Positions 19 through 17,456 are shown, counted from the first letter of the stretch. The stretch is DNA of 24,000 bases from Zoogloea sp. (GCF_041908905.1 NZ_JAYREK010000025.1:21904-45903), one strand, 5' to 3'. The notes: generated from the sequence alone by a model not told the origin. A program made the numbers and translations.

Positions 19-1797
19 TCAGCGCGCGGTGCCGGCCACCAGGTGCGGCCTGACCACGCCCACCGGCGTGCCCCCGTCCACCCGGAACCGGCTCACCACC
101 CGCACCAGGGCGCTGGCCTGTTCCTCGAGGGATTCCGCGGCGGCGGCGGCCTCTTCGACGAGGGCCGCGTTCTGCTGCGTGACCTCGTCCATCTGGCCGA
201 CGGCGGTGGTGATCTGCTCGATGCCCTGGGACTGCTCGCGGCTGGCGCCGGAGATCTCGCTGACCAGGCTGGAGACCTCCTGGAAACTGGCCACCAGGGT
301 CTCCATCGTGGTGCCGGCCTCGTTCACCTGGGAGGCGCCGGCCTCGATGGTGCGCACCGAGCTGCCGATGAGGGCCTTGATCTCCTGGGCGGCCTGGGCC
401 GAGCGCTGGGCGAGGTTGCGCACCTCGGTGGCGACCACCGCGAAGCCGCGCCCCTGCTCGCCGGCCCGGGCGGCCTCGACCGCCGCGTTGAGGGCCAGGA
501 TGTTGGTCTGGAAGGCGATCGAGTCGATCACCCCGATGATGTCGCTGATCTTGCTGGAGCGCTCCTGGATCTCGTTCATCGTGGCGACCACCTGCCGCAC
601 CACGGTGCTGCCGCGCATCACGTCTTCGTGGGAGCGGGTGGCCAGCGCGTTGGCCTGGCGCGCGTTGTCGGCGTTCTGGCGCACGGTGGCGTTGAGCTGC
701 TCCATCGAGCTGGCGGTCTCTTCGAGGCTGCTGGCCTGCTCCTCGGTGCGCGCCGACAGATCGGCGTTCCCCTTGGCGATCTCCTGGGCGCCCAGCAGCA
801 CCTCGTTGGACGAGGCCTTGATCTGGCGCACGATCTGCACCATCGAATCGAGCAGCGAATTGACGCCTTCCGAGAGGGATTCGAGCATGCCCGACTTGCC
901 GGCAAGGGAGATCTGGCGGGTCAGGTCGCCGGCGACGGCGGCGCTCACCACCGACAGGGTTTCCTCGACGGTCTGGCGCAGGGCTTCTTCCTCCTCGACC
1001 TGACGCGTGATGTCGGCGGCGTACTTGACGATCTTGCAGGGGCGCCCGTTCAGGTCGAGGATGGGGTTGTAGCTGGCCTGGATCCACACCTCGCGGCCGT
1101 CCCTGGCGATGCGCCGGTAGCGCCCGGTGTCGTACTCGCCGCGCCCCAGCTTGTCCCAGAAGACCTGGTAGTCGGCGCTCGCCACGTCGGCCGGGGCGAT
1201 GAAGATCGAATGATGGCGCCCGACCACCTCGGCCAGGCTGTAACCCAGCACCTTCAGGAAGTTGTCGTTGGCGGTCAGCACCTTGCCGTCGAGCCCGAAC
1301 TCGATGATCGCCTGGGACTTGCCGATGGCCGCCATCTGGCCCTCGAAGTCGGCGGTGCGCTGCTTGTCGGTGGTGATGTCGGTGGCGTACTTGACCACCT
1401 TGAAGGGCGTGCCGGCGGTGTCGATGATGGGGTTGTAGGCGGCCTGCAGCCACACCTCCCGGCCGTGCTTGCCGAGGCGCTTGAACTGCCCGGCCTGCGG
1501 CGTGCCGCCCGCCAGCTTGCGCCAGAAGTCGCGGTAGGCTTCGCCACCCACGTCGGCCGGCGGCATGAAGATCGAGTGATGGCGGCCGACGATCTCGCCC
1601 AGCTCGTAGCCCACCGCCTTCAGGAAGTTCTGGTTGGCGGTCAGGATGTTGCCGTCGAGGTCGAACTCGATCACCGCCTGGGTCTTGTCGATGGCGGCCA
1701 GCTGGCCCTTGAGGTTGGCCAGTTCCAGGGCGCTGATCGCAACCTCGTCGCCGTCGGTCGCCGCCGAGCCGCCAAACCACTTGCCGAATACGCTCAC
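19..1797 (-). CDS. Soluble methyl-accepting chemotaxis protein with two tandem PAS domains (no transmembrane segment; BdlA/Aer2-like architecture)
   Basis: 592-aa ORF. GTG start at 1797 with AAGGAA 7 nt upstream. Two ~120-aa PAS-like repeats (..[23 protein letters not shown].. and ..[23 protein letters not shown]..) precede the conserved MCP signalling hairpin [25 protein letters not shown]. No hydrophobic stretch. Confidence 0.9.
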
Positions 1798-1916: not shown

Positions 1917-1944
1917 TTGCCTATCGGCCTCTTGCCCCTAAAAT
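1917..1944 (+). promoter_or_regulatory. Candidate sigma70-type promoter for the ATPase/TPR cassette
   Basis: TTGCCT (1917-1922), 16-nt spacer, TAAAAT (1939-1944), about 32 nt upstream of the ATG at 1976. Read by eye only, not scored. Confidence 0.3.
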
Positions 1945-1975: not shown

Positions 1976-3280
1976 ATGTCCGCAGCCGACCTGCTCAAGG
2001 ATTTCTTCAATGCCCTGCCCGAGAGCGCCCAAGGGGGTGCCGACGTCAGCGGCGTTTATGTAAATCGTTCTCCCGACGACGAGCACGACCCCGTTGCCAA
2101 CCTCAAGCAATACATCCAGTGGGAGCCGCGGACGGGGGGCTGTTATCTGTTCAGCGGCCTGCGCGGTGCGGGCAAGACCACCGAACTCAATCGCCTGGTC
2201 GCCGAGTTGCGGCAGGACGGCATCGCGGCCTATTACTGCGATGCAAGCACCTACCTCAACCTCAACGACCCCCAGCTGAGCCTGGCGGAGTTGTTAATGA
2301 CGGCACTGGCCGGGCTGGCCGACGCCGTGCGGCAGGAACTGGGCCAGGACAAGCTGAACGATTCCATCTGGCAGCGCACGAAGCGCCTCTTCCAATCGAA
2401 GGTGGAGCTCAAACCCAAGCTCATCGCTCCCCTCGGCGACTCGGGGGCCTCGCTCGAAGTCGAGGCCACGCTTCAGGAAAACCCGGATTTTCGCAAGGAG
2501 CTGATCAGCTTTGCCCAGTCCTCGTCGGCATTCTTCGATGAGGCGGCAAAGTTTGCGGACGAGGTCGCAGCCACTATCCGTCGCCACACTCGACGCGAAA
2601 AGATCGTGCTGGTGGTGGACTCCCTGGAGCGTATTTCCGCGCCCTCCGGCGACGAGGCCAAGCTGTTCAACAGCCTGAAGGAGGTGTTCTTCAACGAGCC
2701 CACCCGCCTGCAGTTCGCGTCGCTGTTCGTGGTGTACTCCGCGCCGCCTTATCTCCATGCGGTGTTGCCGGGGGTCAGCAATGGCTTCTCGCAGGCAGTG
2801 GCCCTGCCCAATTTCAAGGTGATCCAGCGCGACGGTAGCCGCAACGAGGACGGCATCGGCAGGATGCGCGAGATTGTTGACCGTCGCTTTCCGCAATGGC
2901 CGCAGATCCTCGACGAGACCGTGATGAACCATCTGGCCTGGATGTCGGGGGGCAATGTGCGGCGTTTCTTCAACCTGCTGCGCACCCTGGCCCGCAAGGC
3001 AGCCTTGAGCAGGGTGGCCTTGCCGATCACGGCGGTGGACGCCCCGAGCGTCATTCATGCCCTGGCCGAAGCCGCCCAGCCGCTGCAATGGCTCACCGGC
3101 CCCGATCGGGAATGGCTCAAGCGTTTCATGGACAACGGTGACAATCCGTCCGGCCATATCAAGGACCTGGCCGCCGATCTGCCGCCCATCATCCGCCTCT
3201 TCGATCACTCCCTGGTGCTCGACTACCAGAACGGCAGCCCCTGGTATCAGGTGCCGCCGCTGGTGCGTCAACATGTCTGA
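1976..3280 (+). CDS. P-loop NTPase of the AAA+ ORC/Cdc6 / archaeal-ATPase / STAND-like type, stand-alone (no sensor or effector domain)
   Basis: 434-aa ORF. Walker A GLRGAGKTT (aa 61-69, nt 2156-2182) preceded by a VYVNR element. Walker B-like KIVLVVDSLE (nt ~2603-2629). FVVYSAPP strand (sensor-1-like). GGNVRRFFNLL arginine motif (aa 324-336) resembling the sensor-2/lid region of ORC/Cdc6-type ATPases. No convincing Shine-Dalgarno sequence. The stop overlaps the start of the next gene. Confidence 0.75.
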   Translation: MSAADLLKDFFNALPESAQGGADVSGVYVNRSPDDEHDPVANLKQYIQWEPRTGGCYLFSGLRGAGKTTELNRLVAELRQDGIAAYYCDASTYLNLNDPQLSLAELLMTALAGLADAVRQELGQDKLNDSIWQRTKRLFQSKVELKPKLIAPLGDSGASLEVEATLQENPDFRKELISFAQSSSAFFDEAAKFADEVAATIRRHTRREKIVLVVDSLERISAPSGDEAKLFNSLKEVFFNEPTRLQFASLFVVYSAPPYLHAVLPGVSNGFSQAVALPNFKVIQRDGSRNEDGIGRMREIVDRRFPQWPQILDETVMNHLAWMSGGNVRRFFNLLRTLARKAALSRVALPITAVDAPSVIHALAEAAQPLQWLTGPDREWLKRFMDNGDNPSGHIKDLAADLPPIIRLFDHSLVLDYQNGSPWYQVPPLVRQHV

Positions 3281-5126
3281 AAGCCCCGTCCAGGCTGATT
3301 TCGAGAGCATCTGGAGCGAGATCAAGCTGCTGCTGGACTGGAACCAGGGTTTCGGCTTTTACCTCGTTTTTGGCGACGACCATCGGGTGTCCCGACGCCT
3401 TCAGCAGCGTATCGAGGACGCCACCCGCCTGCGCAGCCACCTCTTGCAGCGGGTCCGCCCCGAGGCCGCCGAGGCGGCGGTGGAGGTAGTGCTCAAGGCG
3501 GCTTTCCCCGAGGGGGAGGACCGCCGCTTTCACGACTGGCGTGCGCCCCTGTGGATCGATCTGACCACTGGGCCCGACGATCAGGCCTGGGAGGCGGCAC
3601 GCCAGCAGACCCTCGCTGCCCTCAACCGCAGTCGCAGCGCCCTCGAGAGGGGTTGCCCCCGGCCACTCTTCCTGCAGTTGCCGGAGGCTATGGCCCCGGC
3701 CGTGGTCACCTGGGCCCCTGATCTGTGGAGTATCAGGCAGTTCGTGGCGGTGCTGCCTCATGATGATCGGATTTATGTGCCGGCCGAGGCAATCGATGTG
3801 AAGACCTTTCGCGAAGAAGCGGTGGAAAGTTCGCTGAAGGCGGAGCGTTTCCATCAGGAGGGGGCACTACTGTCCGCGCTAGAGTCGGCACGAGAGGTGG
3901 TCGAACGTTTTCGGGTGCTGCGCGCAAGTGTTGGCGATACGCCCCAGACGCTGCGCGATCTTTCCGTGAGCCTTGAAAGGCTCGGCGATGTTGAACTCGA
4001 TGCGGGTAATCTTCTGGCCGCGACCGCGGCCTACCGTGAATGTCTGGAACTCGACAGGCTGCGGCGGATGAGGCAGGGTGATACGCCCCAGGTTTTGCGA
4101 GATCTTTCGATTAGCCTTCAAAAGCTCGGTGATGTCCAGTGCGAAGCGGGCAACCTTTCAGTAGCGACAGAGGCTTATCGTGAAAGCCTGGAACTCTGCA
4201 GACGACTGCGGACAAGCCTGGGCGAGATCCCCCAGGCGCTGCGCGATCTCTCCATCAGTCTCCACAAGTTCGGCGATGTCGAGCGTGAGGTGGGCAATCT
4301 CCCGGCGGCTAGGGCGGCTTATCGAGAGAGTCTGGAGCTCATTAGGCAACTGCGAGTAAGCCTGGGTGACACGCCCCAGGCGCTGCGCGACCTCTCCATC
4401 AGTCTCGACATGTTTGGCGATGTCGAGCGCGAGGCGGGTAATTTCCCGGCCGCCGCGGCGGCTTATCGGGAGAGTCTGGAACTCCGTCGACAACTGCGGG
4501 CGAGCCTCGGCGATACCCCCCAGACGCTGCGCGATCTCTCCGTCAGTCTCGACCGGCTCGGCGACGTCGAGCGTCAGGCGCACCATCTCCCGTCAGCCAC
4601 GGTGGCTTACTGTGAGAGTCTGGAACTTAGCAGGCAATTACGAGCGAGTCTGGGTGATACGCCCCAGGTTCTACGCGATGTTTCCGTCAGCCTCAACAAA
4701 CTCGGTAATGTCGAGCGTGATGTGGGTAATTTATCGTCAGCCGCAGCGGCTTATCGGGAGAGTCTCCAACTCGACAGACAATTGCGGGCCAGTCTGGGTG
4801 ATTTGCCCCACGTGCTGCGCTATCTCTCAATAAATCTAAACACGCTCGGCGACTTCGAGCGCGAGGCGGGTAATTTCCCGGCCGCCGCGGCGGCTTATCG
4901 GGAGAGTCTGGAACTCCGTCGACAACTGCGGGCGAGCCTCGGCGATACCCCCCAGACGCTGCGCGATCTCTCCATCAGTCTCGACCGGCTCGGCGATGTG
5001 GAAGCCGAGATGGGCAATCCTGCCGGTGCCGAGGCGGCCCGTCTCGAGCGCCAGGAGCTTCTTGCGCAGCTCGAGCGGGTTTCGACCGAGCCACCTCCGG
5101 CGCCGGACATCGGTCAATCGCCATAG
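3273..5126 (+). CDS. Repeat protein: ~215-aa N-terminal domain of unknown function plus eight 48-aa TPR-like (alpha-hairpin) repeats
   Basis: The ORF track frame opens at 3057, but the ATG at 3273 (MSESPVQADF..) overlaps the upstream stop as ATGTCTGA (TGA 3278-3280), indicating translational coupling. 617 aa. Residues 216-599 are eight in-frame repeats with signature GDTPQxLRDLS[IV]SLxxLGDVExxxGNxxxAxxAYRESLEL. Confidence 0.8.
   Translation: MSESPVQADFESIWSEIKLLLDWNQGFGFYLVFGDDHRVSRRLQQRIEDATRLRSHLLQRVRPEAAEAAVEVVLKAAFPEGEDRRFHDWRAPLWIDLTTGPDDQAWEAARQQTLAALNRSRSALERGCPRPLFLQLPEAMAPAVVTWAPDLWSIRQFVAVLPHDDRIYVPAEAIDVKTFREEAVESSLKAERFHQEGALLSALESAREVVERFRVLRASVGDTPQTLRDLSVSLERLGDVELDAGNLLAATAAYRECLELDRLRRMRQGDTPQVLRDLSISLQKLGDVQCEAGNLSVATEAYRESLELCRRLRTSLGEIPQALRDLSISLHKFGDVEREVGNLPAARAAYRESLELIRQLRVSLGDTPQALRDLSISLDMFGDVEREAGNFPAAAAAYRESLELRRQLRASLGDTPQTLRDLSVSLDRLGDVERQAHHLPSATVAYCESLELSRQLRASLGDTPQVLRDVSVSLNKLGNVERDVGNLSSAAAAYRESLQLDRQLRASLGDLPHVLRYLSINLNTLGDFEREAGNFPAAAAAYRESLELRRQLRASLGDTPQTLRDLSISLDRLGDVEAEMGNPAGAEAARLERQELLAQLERVSTEPPPAPDIGQSP
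3918..5069 (+). repeat. Intragenic tandem array, 8 x 144 bp (48 codons), coding for the TPR-like repeats
   Basis: Unit starts read in frame at 3918, 4062, 4206, 4350, 4494, 4638, 4782 and 4926 (LRxSxGD..). Segment 4423-4564 recurs at 4855-4996 (offset 432 bp = 3 units) with a single mismatch (G4542 vs A4974). Confidence 0.9.
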
Positions 5127-5210: not shown

Positions 5211-6503
5211 TCACATGCCCAGATACGCCGCCCGCACCTGCTCGTCCTCGATCAGCTCGCGGCCGGTGCCGGTGAGGGTGATGCTGCCCGTCTCGAGCAC
5301 ATAGCCCCGGTCGGCGATGGCCAGCGCGGAGAAGGCGTTCTGTTCGGCGAGGATGATCGACATGCCCTGGGCCTTGAGGGCCTTGACCACGTTGAAGACT
5401 TCCTCCACCAGCAGCGGGGCGAGGCCCATCGACGGCTCGTCGAGCAGCAGCAGCTTGGGGCGGCCCATCAGCGCGCGGCCGATGGCGAGCATCTGCTGCT
5501 GGCCGCCGGAGAGGGTGCCGGCGGGGAGCTTGCGCTTCTCCTTGAGGATGGGGAACATCGCGTAGATTTTTTCGAGGTCGCCTTCCACCTGGCCCTTGGG
5601 CTGGGTGTAGGCGCCCAGGCGCAGGTTGTCCTCGATGGACAGCGGGCCGAACACCTGGCGGCCTTCGGGTGACTGGCAGATGCCACGGCGCATGCGCATG
5701 TCGGCGCGGAGCCTGGAGAAGTCCTCGCCGTCGAAGGTGATCCGCCCGCCCATCGGCTGCACGCCGGAGAGGCTGCGCAGGAAGGTGGTCTTGCCGGCGC
5801 CGTTGGCGCCCACCAGGGCCACCGTCTCGCCGCGCCGCACCTCGAGGGAGATGCCCTTGAGGGCCTTGATGCGGCCGTAGCTGCTCTCCAGCCCCTCCAC
5901 CTTCAGCAGCACCTCGCCGACGGTGGAGCTGGGCAGGGCGCCGGCGCTGTGGGCGCCGAGGCCTACGGAGTCCGGCGCCAGGCTGGCGACCCGGTGGAAT
6001 AGCTCGCGGAAGCCGGCCTGGGCCTGGGCCCCGAACACCGGGTCGGCGTTGTCGAGGAAGGCGGCGTCGATCTCCTGCCAGTCGGCGGCGGTGAGGGCTG
6101 CCCTGGCGAGGGGGAAGACCTCGGTTTCCTCGACGCGGATGTGCTCCTCGGCGGCCTTGATGTAGGCGCGCAGGCCCTTCGCCAGCTGGGCCACCGGGGC
6201 GCCCGCGGCGAGCAGGTCGCGCAGGGCCTTGAGGTTGCCCGGGGCGTTGCGGTGGTCGGCCTGCAGGCGGTCGAGCACGGCGGCGGCCTCGGGGCTGCGC
6301 TGGCGCAGCAGGCGGAACAGGTAGTCGTCTTCCTTGGGGTGGTGGAAGTTGTCGACGAACTGCTCGAAGTAGTCGAACACCGAGCCGAGGAAGGCCGCGT
6401 CGGCCTTGCCGGCGGCCTCCATGTCGCCGATGACGCGCTCGACGGTGGTGGCCACGCGCCAGAGGTTGCGGTGCTCGTCCTTGATGATGCGGAGTGCTTC
6501 CAT
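5211..6503 (-). CDS. Hemerythrin-domain / LivF-type ABC transporter ATP-binding protein fusion
   Basis: 430 aa. The N-terminal ~170 aa carry hemerythrin-like metal ligand motifs (DEHRN, FHHPKED, ADHRN, EEHIRVEE). The C-terminal half is a branched-chain amino acid transporter LivF-like ATPase (GANGAGKTT, LSGGQQQMLAIGRAL, LLLLDEPSMGLAP). ATG at 6503 with GAGGA upstream. Confidence 0.85.
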   Translation of the reverse strand: MEALRIIKDEHRNLWRVATTVERVIGDMEAAGKADAAFLGSVFDYFEQFVDNFHHPKEDDYLFRLLRQRSPEAAAVLDRLQADHRNAPGNLKALRDLLAAGAPVAQLAKGLRAYIKAAEEHIRVEETEVFPLARAALTAADWQEIDAAFLDNADPVFGAQAQAGFRELFHRVASLAPDSVGLGAHSAGALPSSTVGEVLLKVEGLESSYGRIKALKGISLEVRRGETVALVGANGAGKTTFLRSLSGVQPMGGRITFDGEDFSRLRADMRMRRGICQSPEGRQVFGPLSIEDNLRLGAYTQPKGQVEGDLEKIYAMFPILKEKRKLPAGTLSGGQQQMLAIGRALMGRPKLLLLDEPSMGLAPLLVEEVFNVVKALKAQGMSIILAEQNAFSALAIADRGYVLETGSITLTGTGRELIEDEQVRAAYLGM

Positions 6504-7282: not shown

Positions 7283-8215
7283 TTATTCAGCCTTTCCAAA
7301 CTTGGCTGCCAGCGTCGGGACGAGGCCCTTGGGCAGGAAGATCATGCACACCATCAGGATGCCGCCGAAGGCGACCGTCTCCCAGCCCTCGAAGGTGGCC
7401 AGTGCCTGGGGCAGGGCGGTGAGCAGCACCGCGCCGATCAGCGAGCCATACACCGAGGCCATGCCGCCGATGACGACCATCGTGACGAGCTCGATGGAGT
7501 GGAAGAAATCGGCCAGGTTGGGGGTCACGAAGCCGACGTAGTGGGCGGTGACGCTGCCCATCAGGCTGGCGAACACCGCCGACATCACGAAGATCGCGAC
7601 CTTGTAGCGGACCACGTCGACGCCCACCACCCGCGAGGCGACCTCGGAGCCGTGCAGCGCGCGCAGGGCGCGGCCGAAGGGCGAGTCGATGAGGTTGAGG
7701 GAGGCCCACACGCTCACCGTGAGCAGCGCGGCGACCACCCAGTACCACTGCTTGTCGCTGGTCAGCTCGAAGCCGAACAGGCCGAAGGCCGGTACCGGCA
7801 TGCCGTCGGGGCCGCCCGTCCATTGGGCCTCGTTGCGCACCGCGATGCTGATGATGATGCCGAGGCCGAGGGTGGCCATCGCCAGGTAGTTGCCCTTCAG
7901 CTTGAAGATCGGTCGGGCCACCACGGCCGCCAGCACGCCGGTGGCGACGGCGCCAGCCAGCATCGCCAGCACCGGGTTCCAGCCGAAGTGGGTGGGCAGC
8001 ACCGCCGAGGCGTAGGCGCCAATGCCGAGGAAGCCGGCGTGGCCGAGGCTGATCTGGCCGGCGAAGCCGATCAGCAGGTTGAGGCCGAGGACGATGACCG
8101 CGTTGATCGCCATGCGGATCGCCAGGTCGACGTAGAAGCTGTTGGGCAGCACGAAGGGCAGCACGGCCAGCACTGCGATGACGATGTAGAGGCCGAAATA
8201 AGCGCGCTTGTGCAT
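7283..8215 (-). CDS. livM: LivM-type branched-chain amino acid ABC transporter permease
   Basis: The ORF track frame extends to 8668, but that extension is Arg/Gly/Pro-rich and overlaps livH. The ATG at 8215 (MHKRAYFGLYIVIAVLAVLP..) sits 2 nt after the livH stop (TGACCATG). The ~310-aa product is a polytopic hydrophobic protein with the LivM-like core LNLLIGFAGQISLGHAGF. Confidence 0.9.
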   Translation of the reverse strand: MHKRAYFGLYIVIAVLAVLPFVLPNSFYVDLAIRMAINAVIVLGLNLLIGFAGQISLGHAGFLGIGAYASAVLPTHFGWNPVLAMLAGAVATGVLAAVVARPIFKLKGNYLAMATLGLGIIISIAVRNEAQWTGGPDGMPVPAFGLFGFELTSDKQWYWVVAALLTVSVWASLNLIDSPFGRALRALHGSEVASRVVGVDVVRYKVAIFVMSAVFASLMGSVTAHYVGFVTPNLADFFHSIELVTMVVIGGMASVYGSLIGAVLLTALPQALATFEGWETVAFGGILMVCMIFLPKGLVPTLAAKFGKAE

Positions 8216-8217
8216 GG

Positions 8218-9093
8218 TCACACCCGGTCCGTCACCTTCGCGCCGAACAGGCCGCGCGGCATGAAGAAGAGAATGAAGAGGATCAGCACGAAGGGGATGG
8301 CGTCCTTGTAGGCCGACGACAGGTAGCCGGCGCCCATCGCCTCGAGCACGCCCACCAGCAGGCCGCCCACCACCGCGCCGAGGCCGTTGCCGAGCCCGCC
8401 GAGCACCGCCGCGACGAAGCCCTTCAGGCCGAGCATGATCCCCACGTCGTAGGAGGTGAGGGTGATCGGGGTGATCAGGATGCCCCCCAGGGCGCCCAGG
8501 GCCGCCGACATCGCGAAGCTCATGAACAGCACGCCGTTGGTGTTGATGCCCACCAGCTCGGCCGCCGTGCGGTTGAAGGAGGTGGCCAGCATCGCCTTGC
8601 CGGTGAGGGTGCGGTTGAAGAAGTACCACAGCAGCACCACGACCACCGCGGTGACACCCAGCACCCACAGGCTCTGGGGCATCAGGGTGGCGCCGAGGAT
8701 CTCGATCGGCGCATCGCCGGAGAAGGCCGGCAGGCTGTGGGTGCCCTTGCCGAGGAAGACCTGGACCAGGCCGCGGATCACCAGCGAGGCGCCGATGGTG
8801 ATGATGATCAGGGTCACCGTCTCGGCGCCCTTGACCGGCTCGATGGCGAGCTTCTCGATCAGCACGCCGACCACCGCCGGCACCAGCACCGCCAGCAGCA
8901 GCGCCGCCGGCAGCGGCAGCCCGGCCTGGGTGAACATCACCGCCAGCATGCCGCCGAGCATGATGAACTCGCCCTGGGCGAAGTTGATGACGTTGCTGGC
9001 GTTGTAGATCAGCGTGAAGCCGAGCGCGGCCAGCGCGTAGGTGGCGCCGACGGTGACGCCGGAGAACAGGAACTGCAGCAGTTGGGCCAGCAT
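8218..9093 (-). CDS. livH: LivH-type branched-chain amino acid ABC transporter permease
   Basis: MLAQLLQFLFSGVTVGATYALAALGFTLIYNASNVINFAQGEF is a typical LivH N-terminus. ATG at 9093 with GGGAG 7 nt upstream. The in-frame GTG at 9096 is an alternative start. Confidence 0.9.
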   Translation of the reverse strand: MLAQLLQFLFSGVTVGATYALAALGFTLIYNASNVINFAQGEFIMLGGMLAVMFTQAGLPLPAALLLAVLVPAVVGVLIEKLAIEPVKGAETVTLIIITIGASLVIRGLVQVFLGKGTHSLPAFSGDAPIEILGATLMPQSLWVLGVTAVVVVLLWYFFNRTLTGKAMLATSFNRTAAELVGINTNGVLFMSFAMSAALGALGGILITPITLTSYDVGIMLGLKGFVAAVLGGLGNGLGAVVGGLLVGVLEAMGAGYLSSAYKDAIPFVLILFILFFMPRGLFGAKVTDRV

Positions 9094-9255
9094 CACGCGG
9101 CTCCCGTTCGGACGTAAGGGGTGCGATGGTTCATCGTGTCTCCTGTCGATTGAGCGATCGGATGGGAGGGACGGGCGGCGCCGGCCCCAGAAGAACTCCC
9201 GCCGCAGCGCCGGGGCATGGCGGAGGGAGTTCTGTATTTTGTAATTTATTCCGCA

Positions 9256-9284
9256 ATTAGAAATGATACAAAAAATCTAGTCAA
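9256..9284 (-). promoter_or_regulatory. Candidate sigma70 promoter of the liv-type operon
   Basis: Read on the minus strand: TTGACT (complement of 9279-9284), 17 nt, TCTAAT (complement of 9256-9261). It lies inside the GATACA/TGTATC inverted repeat. Confidence 0.45.
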
Positions 9285-9300
9285 GACAATCTTGTGTATC
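9265..9300. promoter_or_regulatory. Perfect inverted repeat GATACA-N24-TGTATC, candidate PaaX operator
   Basis: GATACA at 9265-9270 and TGTATC at 9295-9300. The same half-sites with the same 24-nt spacing recur at 17536-17571. The flanks are also shared (AATGATACAAAAAA and TGTATCGnATTG). Confidence 0.5.
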
Positions 9301-9410
9301 GAATTGCGGGTTTTAGCGAACCCTCGGCCGGCGCCCGGGGGAGGGCGTGGAGGGCGCTGAAGCACGGGGGATGCCGGGCCGGGGAGGGCGGCCGGACAGG
9401 CGCGGGGGCG

Positions 9411-9449
9411 CGATACGCCGCCCGCCGGGGAGGCGCCGGCGGCGTATCG
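9411..9449. other. GC-rich perfect 12-bp inverted repeat / stem-loop just downstream of the IclR gene
   Basis: CGATACGCCGCC (9411-9422) and GGCGGCGTATCG (9438-9449) with a 15-nt spacer that can pair further (CGCC/GGCG). It starts 13 nt after the IclR stop (9462-9464). No U-tract follows on the minus strand. The outer ends read GATAC...GTATC. Confidence 0.35.
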
Positions 9450-9461
9450 GGTGGCGACCCC

Positions 9462-10265
9462 TCAGGAGGGGGCGTTGGCGTCGCGGGTGGAGCCGAGGCG
9501 CAGCGAGAGGGCGTCGGCGGCGGCCCGCAGGCGGGCCAGGGTGGCGCTGTCGGGGCCCATGTCGATGGCGCCTTCGACGCCCACGATCACCAGCGCCATC
9601 GTGAGGTCGTTCTTGAAGTTGAAGACCGGCGCGGCGGCGGCCTCGACGCCGCGGAAGAGGTATTCGTCGCCGGTGATCACCGCGATGCCCCGTTCGCGCA
9701 CGCCGGCCAGCAGGGCCTCGGCGTCGTCCATGGTGGTGACGCCGGGGGGCAGGTTCTTGCGCTGCTCCACCTCGCGCCTGACGATGGCGCGGGTGGCGTT
9801 GGGCAGCCACGCGGCGAACACCCGGCCGGCGGCCGAGCTGAGCACGCCGAGGGTGGTGCCGGTGACCACGTTGACGGTGATCGGCCGGCGCGGGCGCTCC
9901 CAGCGCACGATGACCGGGCCGTTGTCGCCCCACACCGCCAGCGCCGTGGTCTCGTTGATCTCGTCCCGCAGCTCGGAGATCGCCGCCAGCCCGAGGCGGA
10001 TGCGGTCGAGGCGGTCGATGGCGACCAGGCCGATGTTGAGGGCGAAGGGCCCGAGGTTGTAGCGCGAGGTGAGCGGGTCCTGTTCGACCAAGCCGCTGCG
10101 GATCAGGCTGACGAGATAGCGGTGGGCCTTGGACGGGGGCATGTCGGCGGCGGCGGCGATGTCCTTGAGCATCATCGAGCGCTGGCCGAAGACCATCGCC
10201 TTGAGAATGCCCATGCCCACCTCGAGGGACTGGACGCCGTGTTTTCCTTCCAGCTCTTCGCTCAT
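9462..10265 (-). CDS. IclR-family transcriptional regulator
   Basis: 267 aa. N-terminal wHTH region (VQSLEVGMGILKAMVFGQRSMMLKDIAAAADMPPSKAHRYLVSLIRSGLVEQD) and a C-terminal IclR effector-binding-type domain. ATG at 10265. Confidence 0.9.
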   Translation of the reverse strand: MSEELEGKHGVQSLEVGMGILKAMVFGQRSMMLKDIAAAADMPPSKAHRYLVSLIRSGLVEQDPLTSRYNLGPFALNIGLVAIDRLDRIRLGLAAISELRDEINETTALAVWGDNGPVIVRWERPRRPITVNVVTGTTLGVLSSAAGRVFAAWLPNATRAIVRREVEQRKNLPPGVTTMDDAEALLAGVRERGIAVITGDEYLFRGVEAAAAPVFNFKNDLTMALVIVGVEGAIDMGPDSATLARLRAAADALSLRLGSTRDANAPS

Positions 10266-16427: not shown

Positions 16428-17456
16428 TCAGAAGACGGGAATGATGTCTTCCATCTCGATGTCGCTGATCTCCTGGCCGGTGATGCCCACTTCGGGGATC
16501 GCCGGGAAGGGGATGTTGTAGCGGTCGAGCACGCCCTTCAGGTTGATCATGGCGTTCTTCCAGTTCTGCAGCTTCATCTCGTAGGTGGGAATGCCGAAGC
16601 CGGCGCCGCGGGCGACTTCCTCGGCCTCGCGCTGGTTGGCGATGAAGTCGGCGGGGAGGTCCCAGAACTCCATCGGCGGCTCGAACAGCACCGCCGACAG
16701 GAACAGGTAGCCGGCGCGGATCTGCTTGGTGACCACGGACTTGGTCTCTTCCTTGAGGCCCGGGTAGTCGCGCTCCATCACCGCCATGCAGATCGCCATG
16801 TGGCGTCCCTCGTCGCGGCCGATGTTCTTGAAGCCTTCCTTGAAGACCGGCTCGCGGGAGTTGTCGAACATCTGCTTGAAGATGGTGGCGGCGGCGATCT
16901 CGCCCATCAGGAAGGAGCTGAACAGCACCGCCAGGTCGTACTTGGGCACGGCCTGCTTGTAGCCGTTCCAGTAGCGCGAGCCATTGAAGTACAGCCACTG
17001 CACGTTCTTCTGCAGGCGCTTGCCGAGCTCGGTCTTGGGCTGGTAGGTGATCGGGTCCGGGTGGCCGAGCATCCTGGTGATGGCCAGGCCGCACATGATC
17101 TCGTGGTTCTGCTCGTCGCGGGTGACCGAGAAGAAGCACTTGCGGACCGGGTCTTCCTCGTGGACCTCATAGGTCTTGATCAGCGCTTCGGCAAACACCG
17201 GGGGCGCCGAGGCGTCGAACACCGACAGCAGGCTCCACCAGTAGGCGATCGATTCGCGTTCTTCCCAGGTGTAGCTGTCCACGTCCAGGGTGTCCCACGG
17301 CAGCTTCTCCGGGTCCCAGTTCTCGCGCAGGGCGGCCTGCCAGACCTCCTGCAGCTTCTTGGTCTTGCTGTTCCACGACAGCGGATAGACGTTGGGCTGC
17401 TGGATTTCGGGCGGAAATTCCATCTTGTCGGCGAACCGTTCCTTGCTGACGCTCAT
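16428..17456 (-). CDS. Ferritin/R2-like diiron-carboxylate oxygenase, single-subunit type, function unknown
   Basis: 342 aa. Two diiron half-motifs: VFDAS...(34)...RDEQNH and MGEIA...(30)...RDEGRH. ATG at 17456 with GAGGAG 8 nt upstream. Followed by a dedicated reductase gene. Confidence 0.8.
   Translation of the reverse strand: MSVSKERFADKMEFPPEIQQPNVYPLSWNSKTKKLQEVWQAALRENWDPEKLPWDTLDVDSYTWEERESIAYWWSLLSVFDASAPPVFAEALIKTYEVHEEDPVRKCFFSVTRDEQNHEIMCGLAITRMLGHPDPITYQPKTELGKRLQKNVQWLYFNGSRYWNGYKQAVPKYDLAVLFSSFLMGEIAAATIFKQMFDNSREPVFKEGFKNIGRDEGRHMAICMAVMERDYPGLKEETKSVVTKQIRAGYLFLSAVLFEPPMEFWDLPADFIANQREAEEVARGAGFGIPTYEMKLQNWKNAMINLKGVLDRYNIPFPAIPEVGITGQEISDIEMEDIIPVF

Follow-up and report, generated by a model that had tools for sequence, protein, structure and literature searches.

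What could be sensed, and what switched, by a P-loop ATPase and a repeat protein that are encoded by two overlapping genes and carry no recognizable effector? This question is raised by a gene pair at positions 1976-5126 of a 24,000-nucleotide (nt) stretch of Zoogloea sp. DNA (GCF_041908905.1 NZ_JAYREK010000025.1:21904-45903), the whole of which we refer to as the window. An earlier interpretation made from the sequence alone (the sequence-only reading) had described a translationally coupled ATPase gene (gene 1) and tetratricopeptide repeat (TPR) gene (gene 2), viewed as an NLR-like sensor split over two polypeptides. The coupled NTPase and TPR sensor genes are indeed present, but gene 2 also carries a pseudo-ATPase domain with an arginine-finger-like motif that this description did not contain. 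We propose that the pair is an obligate two-protein AAA+ switch with a composite active site, functioning as an NLR-like sensor that is probably conflict-related and whose output lies outside the pair; for this reading as a whole, we consider the prospects of being right and of being wrong to be evenly balanced.

Gene 1 encodes 434 amino acids (aa), in line with the earlier estimate of about 430, and the motifs listed in the sequence-only reading were located at aa 27-31 (VYVNR), 61-69 (GLRGAGKTT, including K67), 211-218 (VLVVDSLE), and 325-335 (GGNVRRFFNLL). Three Pfam models, AAA_16, AAA_22, and NPHP3_N, score just above their cut-offs. Among the STAND models, NPHP3_N reaches 26.8 against a cut-off of 24.8, and NACHT (20.1 versus 26.7) and nSTAND_NTPase5 (22 versus 34) fall short, as does the Pfam model ATPase_2. 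The AlphaFold model of the protein (predicted local distance difference test score [pLDDT] of 87, predicted template modeling score [pTM] of 0.86) has an AAA+ α/β core into which a hairpin and helices are inserted, together with a helical lid and, at the C-terminus, a winged helix. When this model was compared with the PDB using Foldseek, ORC1/Cdc6 structures ranked first (7jk6_A at 5.8e-9, then 2qby_A, 1w5t, and 1fnn_A), and further matches included the RADAR ATPase RdrA, archaeal ATPases (SSO1545; 2fna and 2qen), TnsC, RuvB, and Apaf-1; a search of PDB sequences with the gene 1 profile returned P-loop noise only. Because of the Pfam matches and the top Foldseek matches, we assign gene 1 to the ORC/Cdc6-, archaeal-ATPase-, and STAND-like AAA+ NTPases, as the sequence-only reading had done.

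Gene 1 has every ATP-site motif except an arginine finger. In an alignment of 71 homologues sharing 25-96% identity, the residues G61, R63, G64, G66, K67, T68, T69, E70, D215, E218, P258, G326, and W423 are invariant, and position 255, the sensor-1 position, is S or T. We read R329, which lies in the lid, as a sensor-2-like arginine, and the GGNVR motif that contains it is presumably comparable with the GDAR motif of Cdc6/ORC. In the winged helix, the segment IIRLFDHSL, with D410 and a histidine at 411 or 412, resembles in sequence the MHD motif of STAND proteins. The interval between strands β4 (aa 250-256) and β5 (aa 273-277) is where AAA+ proteins carry the box VII arginine finger, and no arginine is conserved there (aa 257-273) among the 71 homologues. 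Two other features of the protein deserve mention. One is the arginine within the P-loop itself (G-x-R-G-x-G-K-T-T-E), present in 71 of 71 homologues, which we take to recall the GxRRxGKT loop of PF01637-type archaeal ATPases. The other is a short conserved N-terminal helix (LLKxFFNALP, aa 3-13, within 1976-2014), confidently predicted and followed by a disordered stretch, which could serve as a peptide ligand of the TPR array of the partner.

The finger that gene 1 lacks may be provided by gene 2. The sequence-only reading had left the first 215 aa or so of this protein unassigned. These residues do lack a Pfam model, but the first ~165 aa, which we call the N-domain, form a conserved, degenerate AAA+-like domain according to structure prediction and Foldseek. 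Although the N-domain matches nothing in Pfam, NCBIfam, or PADLOC, and a PDB sequence search with its profile returned only P-loop noise, it is present in conserved form in the partner gene at almost all loci. When 1.84 billion cluster representatives were searched exhaustively with HMMER, at least 2,220 proteins contained it at E ≤ 1e-3 and 1,192 at E ≤ 1e-10, and among the matches listed it starts within the first ~30 residues in 150 of 150. The model (pLDDT 90.5) is a five-stranded α/β fold with the order α0-β1-α1-β2-α2-β3-α3-β4-α4-β5, and its best 50 Foldseek matches in the PDB are almost all AAA+ or AAA+-like, including ORC subunits, CbbX, the inactive AAA-like domain of Sir3, NSF-D2, DnaC, TnsC, and a clamp-loader subunit.

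Sequence conservation within the N-domain is concentrated at W14, F27, W94, L117, N118, R121, A148, P149, D150, L151, W152, S153, and R155, all of which are invariant or nearly so. At the site following β1 where a P-loop would be expected, the protein reads GFGFYLVFGDD (consensus GFAFIVLLVPD) and contains no Walker A motif. The motif APDLWS(V/I)R, by comparison, ends helix α4 directly before β5 in the model, which would place R155 at the canonical AAA+ arginine-finger position; we take this to be the position of the finger in FtsH (…RPGRFDR-QVVV), in box VII of DnaA, and in the SRC motif of RFC. The predicted fold thus suggests that the N-domain is a pseudo-ATPase that has lost its P-loop and kept an invariant arginine. 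The two proteins would then be complementary, with gene 1 providing the ATP-site elements minus the finger and its partner providing the finger only.

The two genes form a unit. A scan of 185,579 species, each represented by one genome, yielded 296 tblastn-confirmed stretches encoding relatives of gene 1. The best 79 of these 296 loci were fetched, and 74 could be evaluated for the partner. An open reading frame (ORF) encoding the N-domain abuts gene 1 in 72 of the 74, starting between −26 and +57 nt from the gene 1 stop codon and overlapping gene 1 by 4 nt at 20 loci and by 8 nt at 8 loci; the co-occurrence of the genes, which the sequence-only reading had marked for a survey of homologues, is therefore nearly general. 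In the two exceptions gene 1 is fragmentary, and at two further loci both genes are frameshifted. Conversely, a reverse look-up starting from divergent N-domain proteins found gene 1 immediately upstream in three of three cases. The pairwise identities found for gene 1 also correlate strongly with those found for the N-domain (r = 0.90, Mantel p = 0.001).

The loci span more than 10 phyla and come from Beta- and Gammaproteobacteria, acetic-acid Alphaproteobacteria, Acidobacteriota, Verrucomicrobiota, Myxococcales, Actinomycetota, Heliomicrobium, Deinococcales, Brocadiaceae, Hydrogenedentota, and Abditibacteria. The distribution is patchy, and the neighborhood differs in each lineage. For the Vibrio cholerae protein, records exist for only a few hundred contigs; setting this count against what we presume to be the number of sequenced strains, we read the V. 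cholerae copy as a strain-variable accessory gene. Measured against Zoogloea orthologues, the ratio of nonsynonymous to synonymous divergence (dN/dS, or ω) comes to 0.10 in gene 1 and to 0.08-0.09 in the N-domain, indicating purifying selection on both cores. On these comparative grounds, both genes are real and not chance ORFs, since homologues occur in many phyla and dN/dS is low.

The C-terminal part of gene 2 evolves very differently from the two cores. The sequence-only reading had counted eight TPR-type repeats of 48 aa, and this count holds: the repeats start at aa 221, 269, 317, 365, 413, 461, 509, and 557, exactly 48 aa apart; Tandem Repeats Finder detects a period of 144 nt (7.7 copies, 3933-5038); and the Pfam model TPR_12 matches with E=3.8e-25 (88 bits), with TPR_2, TPR_1, and TPR_10 also above cut-off. 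The repeat unit is thus 48 aa and not 34 or 42. TPR_12 is found in 50 of 55 partners, similarity to TPR_MalT in 23 of 55, and TPRs follow the N-domain in all 10 further long family members; partner lengths range from 167 aa, in a Zoogloea protein consisting of the N-domain only (locus L013), to about 900 aa. Among Zoogloea loci whose N-domains are 94% identical, the copy number is 8 in the window (3933-5084), 7 in L001 (5617-6572), and 9 in L002 (2298-3493). One repeat interval in L001 measures 95 aa instead of 96. In comparisons of Zoogloea orthologues, dN is 0.11-0.14 in the array versus 0.018 in the cores (6-8 times higher), and the variable residues cluster at repeat positions 15-16, 22-25, 27-32, and 41. 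Because TPRs are near-general in partners, dN is fast, copy number changes, and the variable positions are clustered, the array appears, from its sequence, to behave like a sensor.

No third gene accompanies the pair in an all-against-all clustering of its neighbors, and the idea of a conserved third gene was dropped. The genes downstream on the same strand encode an amidohydrolase, a permease, threonine synthase, VIT1, RecC, and similar proteins. Threonine synthase lies directly after the pair, on the same strand, at two betaproteobacterial loci (L029, 8918-10432; L032, 4428-5852). The 104 immediate neighbors are a metabolic, transport, and regulatory mix in which the most frequent families occur only 2-4 times. 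The 20-kb context read for one gammaproteobacterial metagenome-assembled genome is a polysaccharide region of variable content, where Schlafen-like, Mrr-like, and BrnA genes also occur, and in Zoogloea the locus is syntenic on its downstream side. The prospect of variable or defense islands raised in the sequence-only reading is thus answered in part: neighborhoods do vary by lineage, but there is no clear association with defense islands.

Neither protein of the window contains an effector domain detectable with Pfam, as the sequence-only reading had also stated, and among the loci examined effectors appear only in rare variants. At an acidobacterial locus (L079), the N-domain is fused to SIR2, NACHT, and FGE-sulfatase domains (N-domain–SIR2–NACHT–FGE-sulfatase). 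At L084, a free-standing N-domain gene is followed by a separate metallophosphatase–NACHT–FGE-sulfatase gene, and a Nostoc plasmid encodes an N-domain–TPR–nSTAND1–WD40 protein of 1,844 aa, annotated as "ribosome assembly protein 4". Gene 1 is kept at all three loci, which compare with about 70 loci that have the pair alone. Two copies of the L084 module (an FGE-sulfatase gene, gene 1, the N-domain-only gene, and the metallophosphatase–NACHT–FGE-sulfatase gene) lie on a single 21.6-kb contig (ENA contig ctg189427, L084/L085), and a reverse transcriptase that combines RVT_1 and GIIM domains comes after each of them; the doubling could be a tandem duplication or an assembly artifact.

These observations suggest how the pair might work. 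Gene 1 would bind ATP, and the pseudo-ATPase domain of gene 2 would dock on its nucleotide face and complete the active site in trans by supplying R155, possibly together with N118 and R121. There is precedent for such completion, as Orc4 does this for Orc1 and clamp-loader subunits do it for each other. The TPR array would bind a variable protein or peptide ligand, gating docking and thereby the ATP state of the complex. The pair probably acts as a sensor, and the complex would be NLR-like, most probably in conflict with invading elements, with an output that neither gene encodes. The translational coupling is in keeping with production of both proteins in equal amounts. The analysis established the folds, the motifs, the coupling and co-occurrence of the genes, the purifying selection, and the variability of the sensor; we infer the heteromer, the trans arginine finger, ligand sensing by the TPRs, and the conflict role. 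If the model holds, the pair would illustrate how two proteins with a common ATP site can make up an NLR-like sensor, with catalysis controlled by giving or withholding an arginine finger, and the N-domain family (at least 2,220 sequence clusters with no Pfam model and no annotation) would gain a name and a predicted fold. Because the sensor would control catalysis through the finger, the activation step is testable by point mutants (K67A, R155A).

Several observations weigh against this composite-site model. The trans arginine finger is placed by predicted secondary structure and motif position only. The Foldseek scores of the N-domain are modest (E of 4e-4 to 1e-2, probability of 0.89-1.0, template modeling score of about 0.4), and its assignment as a pseudo-ATPase draws on the predicted fold only, since a profile–profile comparison with gene 1 found no sequence similarity. 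The TPR array has an ω of 0.21-0.25, below 1 overall, and partners with the N-domain alone and no TPRs occur (L013, L084). The defense role suggested in the sequence-only reading is, moreover, not supported so far. The common architecture has no effector. Few of the 104 flanking proteins match PADLOC models, several of them generic (ABC, helicase), with no clear excess of defense models; the 20-kb contexts are housekeeping in V. cholerae, in Pokkaliibacter, and on a 4.8-Mb metagenome contig; no relatives turned up in a protein search of 50,697 phage records or in pattern scans of IMG/VR; and the pair was found on only 3 of 72,556 plasmids. On plasmid pACPOL1 of Acidisarcina polymorpha (L080), the deposited annotation starts the TPR gene at 8890 and misses the N-domain, although the ORF at 8209-9873 contains it intact; some 4-6 kb upstream are a gene with a CHAT domain and a further TPR gene.

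Without an effector, a clear association with defense islands, or carriage by phages, a cellular regulatory role is well in play. The pair could be a non-defense switch or assembly factor, a housekeeping-type or regulatory ATPase–TPR scaffold that, for example, controls how a host complex is assembled or turned over or controls a signaling pathway, with TPRs that bind host proteins. The metabolic and regulatory flanking genes, with no conserved mobile or defense genes among them, the absence from phage and viral collections, the lack of an effector domain, the strong purifying selection on both cores, and the downstream synteny within Zoogloea are all in line with this explanation, which we consider unlikely but with a real chance of being correct. 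It sits less well with a pair that is very rare and patchy (296 loci in 185,579 species), whose neighbors differ by lineage and whose V. cholerae copy reads as a strain-variable accessory gene. A host-binding scaffold would also be expected to be stable, whereas repeat number and sequence differ between close strains, and fusion or adjacency to SIR2–, metallophosphatase–, or nSTAND1–STAND proteins is seen in some variants. In favor of a role in conflict or immunity are the patchy distribution, the variable neighborhoods, the hypervariable sensor, sensor swapping, and these same links to STAND proteins, and we regard such a role as the most likely single reading; the G+C content of the pair, lower than that of its flanks (0.61-0.64 versus about 0.70), was also counted for a link with conflict systems.

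The rare architectures invite another explanation, in which gene 1 and the N-domain serve other NLR-like proteins as an accessory module for regulation or output. They would form an ATPase unit that sets a threshold, resets, or is recruited, comparable with MoxR–vWA or Trip13–HORMA; the N-domain would bring this unit to STAND sensors, and the common N-domain–TPR form would act on a partner encoded elsewhere. In the L079 and Nostoc proteins, the N-domain occupies the extreme N-terminus of complete STAND proteins, an adaptor or effector position; at L084 it stands alone beside such a protein; and gene 1 is retained in each case. ATPase thresholding and inactive STAND components also have precedent in conflict systems (PMC7159879, PMC8195603). 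Three such loci are few compared with the roughly 70 where the pair stands alone, however, and no third gene is conserved. ORC/Cdc6-type ATPases are switches and are not known to be unfoldases. We judge an accessory module to be quite improbable. A split transcription regulator of the MalT/LAL type, in which the ATPase and TPR sensor control a separate DNA-binding protein or the winged helix of gene 1 binds DNA, appears very unlikely. The TPR_MalT similarity in 23 of 55 partners, the winged-helix domain of gene 1, and a GerE/LuxR-type regulator gene that precedes the pair by 300 nt on the same strand in V. cholerae (L082, 8915-9703) are consistent with it, but that neighbor is absent from the other lineages examined, and Pfam finds no helix-turn-helix (HTH) domain in either protein, including the LuxR/GerE output domain that MalT/LAL regulators carry. 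Because the winged-helix segment IIRLFDHSL is hydrophobic and acidic rather than basic, its sequence does not suggest DNA binding.

The composite-site sensor could also be taken a step further, to an undescribed class of "split-site" AAA+ immune sensors in which a hypervariable TPR receptor bears a pseudo-ATPase domain, the arginine finger of this domain switches on an ORC/Cdc6-like ATPase only once a foreign ligand is bound, the activated ATPase or an oligomer that it nucleates is the output, and the N-domain is a handle that plugs SIR2–NACHT and nSTAND1–WD40 proteins into the ATPase. We consider this extended version unlikely. The pair also poses the question of what output might come from an ATPase–TPR module that has no effector and that purifying selection maintains across more than ten phyla.

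How does the pair relate to systems that have been described? The sequence-only reading had recognized no named defense system, and searches agree with it: in PADLOC, the best match of gene 1 is mad8 at E=1e-3, gene 2 matches a generic TPR model only, and no Avs or NLR model matches, and no NCBIfam model scores above cut-off for either protein. We found no paper describing the pair; the 2026 STAND survey (PMC13581612) was compared without accession numbers. In that survey, 198 of 589 prokaryotic STAND clades are defense-associated, so an uncharacterized clade is not surprising in itself (PMC13581612). The suggestion that the two-gene system is undescribed therefore stands as regards its name and the literature, but a similar layout had been predicted earlier. 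This is the nSTAND2 two-gene counter-invader operon, a computational prediction by Kaur, Iyer, Burroughs, and Aravind (2021, eLife; PMC8195603), which is the closest described analogue of the pair. Its layout is given as "STAND+wHTH -> inactive STAND(+wHTH)+TPRs+HEPN" (wHTH, winged HTH): the TPRs and an effector are attached to a STAND module whose NTP motifs are eroded, and the authors predicted a hetero-multimer (PMC8195603). The Zoogloea pair likewise has an active-NTPase gene adjacent to a gene combining an inactive NTPase with TPRs.

The resemblance to nSTAND2 does not extend to sequence or to domain details. An hhalign comparison of the published alignment with the N-domain and with gene 1 gave probabilities below 1%, and PF20702 matches neither protein of the pair, whereas a control nSTAND2 sequence matches it at 1.8e-27. 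The inactive module of the pair is an α/β core of only ~165 aa without a lid or wHTH, and the TPRs are usually not followed by a HEPN or GT4 effector. The putative arginine finger is in the inactive partner only, while in nSTAND2 it is reported in both proteins (PMC8195603). An E. coli nSTAND2 sequence searched against the plasmids and phages gave no match.

Other comparisons each capture a part of the pair. The best structural matches to gene 1 and the N-domain are ORC/Cdc6, clamp loaders, and PF01637-type archaeal ATPases. In common with these AAA+ proteins, gene 1 has a GGxxR sensor-2-like motif, a GxRGxGKT P-loop, and the succession of core, lid, and winged helix; in the heteromers of ORC and RFC, arginine fingers are shared in trans between active and inactive subunits. 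The pair differs in having no replication context, no box VII arginine in gene 1, a winged-helix surface unlike a DNA-binding surface, and a partner that carries TPRs. With Avs/AVAST and bNACHT proteins it shares a STAND-like NTPase and a rapidly varying TPR-like sensor that can be swapped for WD40 or FGE-sulfatase (PMC13581612). Those are single chains with an N-terminal effector and are enriched near defense genes, whereas the pair consists of two effector-less proteins; in 72 of 74 loci the repeats sit in gene 2 and not, as in STAND NTPases, in the NTPase polypeptide. The pair also resembles fungal NLRs whose TPR, ANK, or WD repeats are highly similar (Dyrka et al. 2014, PMC4986451). Their arrays reportedly combine near-identical repeats with few hypervariable positions and a copy number that changes between close relatives; these are eukaryotic single-chain NACHT or NB-ARC proteins. 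Finally, in iSTAND and iSTAND2 of the MoxR–vWA ternary systems, which are predicted conflict systems, a catalytically inactive STAND/AAA+ module partners an active AAA+ ATPase (PMC7159879, PMC8195603), but there is no MoxR or vWA among the neighbors of the pair, the N-domain is much smaller, and the active partner is ORC/STAND-like and not MoxR. What is known, then, is the kind of system, in which an active AAA+/STAND module is paired with an inactive one and a repeat sensor is present; the pair itself is real, conserved, and unnamed.

Features of the gene pair and its boundaries in the window (positions counted from the first nucleotide of the window)
Feature	Positions	Strand	Remarks
Promoter-like site TTGCCT-16-TAAAAT	1917..1944	+	32 nt 5' of gene 1 ATG
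Gene 1 (AAA+ ATPase, ORC/Cdc6–STAND type; α/β core, lid, C-terminal winged helix)	1976..3280	+	434 aa; ORF, Pfam, structure model, Foldseek, homologue alignments
Walker A G61-L-R-G-A-G-K67-T-T-E70	2156..2185	+	GxRGxGKTTE invariant in 71/71 homologues
Walker B V211-LVVD215-S-L-E218	2606..2629	+	D215 and E218 invariant (71 homologues)
Lid motif G325-G-N-V-R329-R	2948..2965	+	R329 99% conserved; lid helices in model
Winged-helix motif IIRLFDHSL	3188..3214	+	D410 92% conserved; His at 411 or 412 in most homologues
Overlap of gene 1 and gene 2, ATGTCTGA	3273..3280	+	Gene 2 start codon overlapping gene 1 stop codon
Gene 2 (partner: N-domain, linker, TPR array)	3273..5126	+	617 aa; ORF, Pfam
N-domain, aa 1-165	3273..3767	+	Degenerate AAA+-like α/β core (predicted), five strands, no Walker A, no Pfam model
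L117-N118-R-S-R121 motif	3621..3635	+	N118 and R121 invariant; end of helix α3, just before β4
A148-P-D150-L-W-S-I-R155 motif	3714..3737	+	End of helix α4, directly before β5
Helical linker, aa 166-220	3768..3932	+	Poorly conserved
Eight 48-aa (144-nt) TPR-type repeats	3933..5084	+	Hypervariable positions; Pfam, Tandem Repeats Finder
Stem-loop, 18-nt arms, 4-nt loop	5127..5166	.	Between gene 2 stop and convergent hemerythrin–LivF gene

At the locus itself, the ATG of gene 2 (3273-3275) lies inside the final codons of gene 1, within caacATGTCTGAaag, and the TGA of gene 1 is at 3278-3280, which bears out the statement in the sequence-only reading that gene 2 starts within the stop of gene 1. The exact gene 1 protein is WP_374242032.1, annotated as "hypothetical protein". 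The promoter-like site is plausible by position only, as one such site was found versus 0.6 expected by chance, and the stem-loop is a possible terminator that a consensus terminator scan did not call. The pair is flanked upstream by a divergent gene for a PAS-domain chemoreceptor (19..1797, −) and downstream by a convergent transporter cluster (hemerythrin–LivF / LivG / LivM / LivH). Carriage of the pair by a mobile element was dropped from consideration, as there is no integrase or transposase near it in the window, and no convincing terminal inverted repeats flanking the pair were found. A search of the window against Rfam gave no RNA family, and the window contains no tRNA.

Two of the surrounding genes are of interest in their own right. 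The gene at 5211-6503 (−), which heads the LivG/M/H-like cluster, encodes a hemerythrin HHE domain fused N-terminally to a LivF-type ABC ATPase, and the same fusion adjoins the pair in Zoogloea ramigera (L002). Farther downstream, in a G+C dip (0.55-0.62), a 342-aa ORF at 16428-17456 (−) has no Pfam match at 1e-5 and contains two E..H motifs (DEQNHE and DEGRH) that are suggestive of a di-iron oxygenase; it is located between a Fer2/FAD/NAD reductase gene and an aldehyde-dehydrogenase-like ORF.

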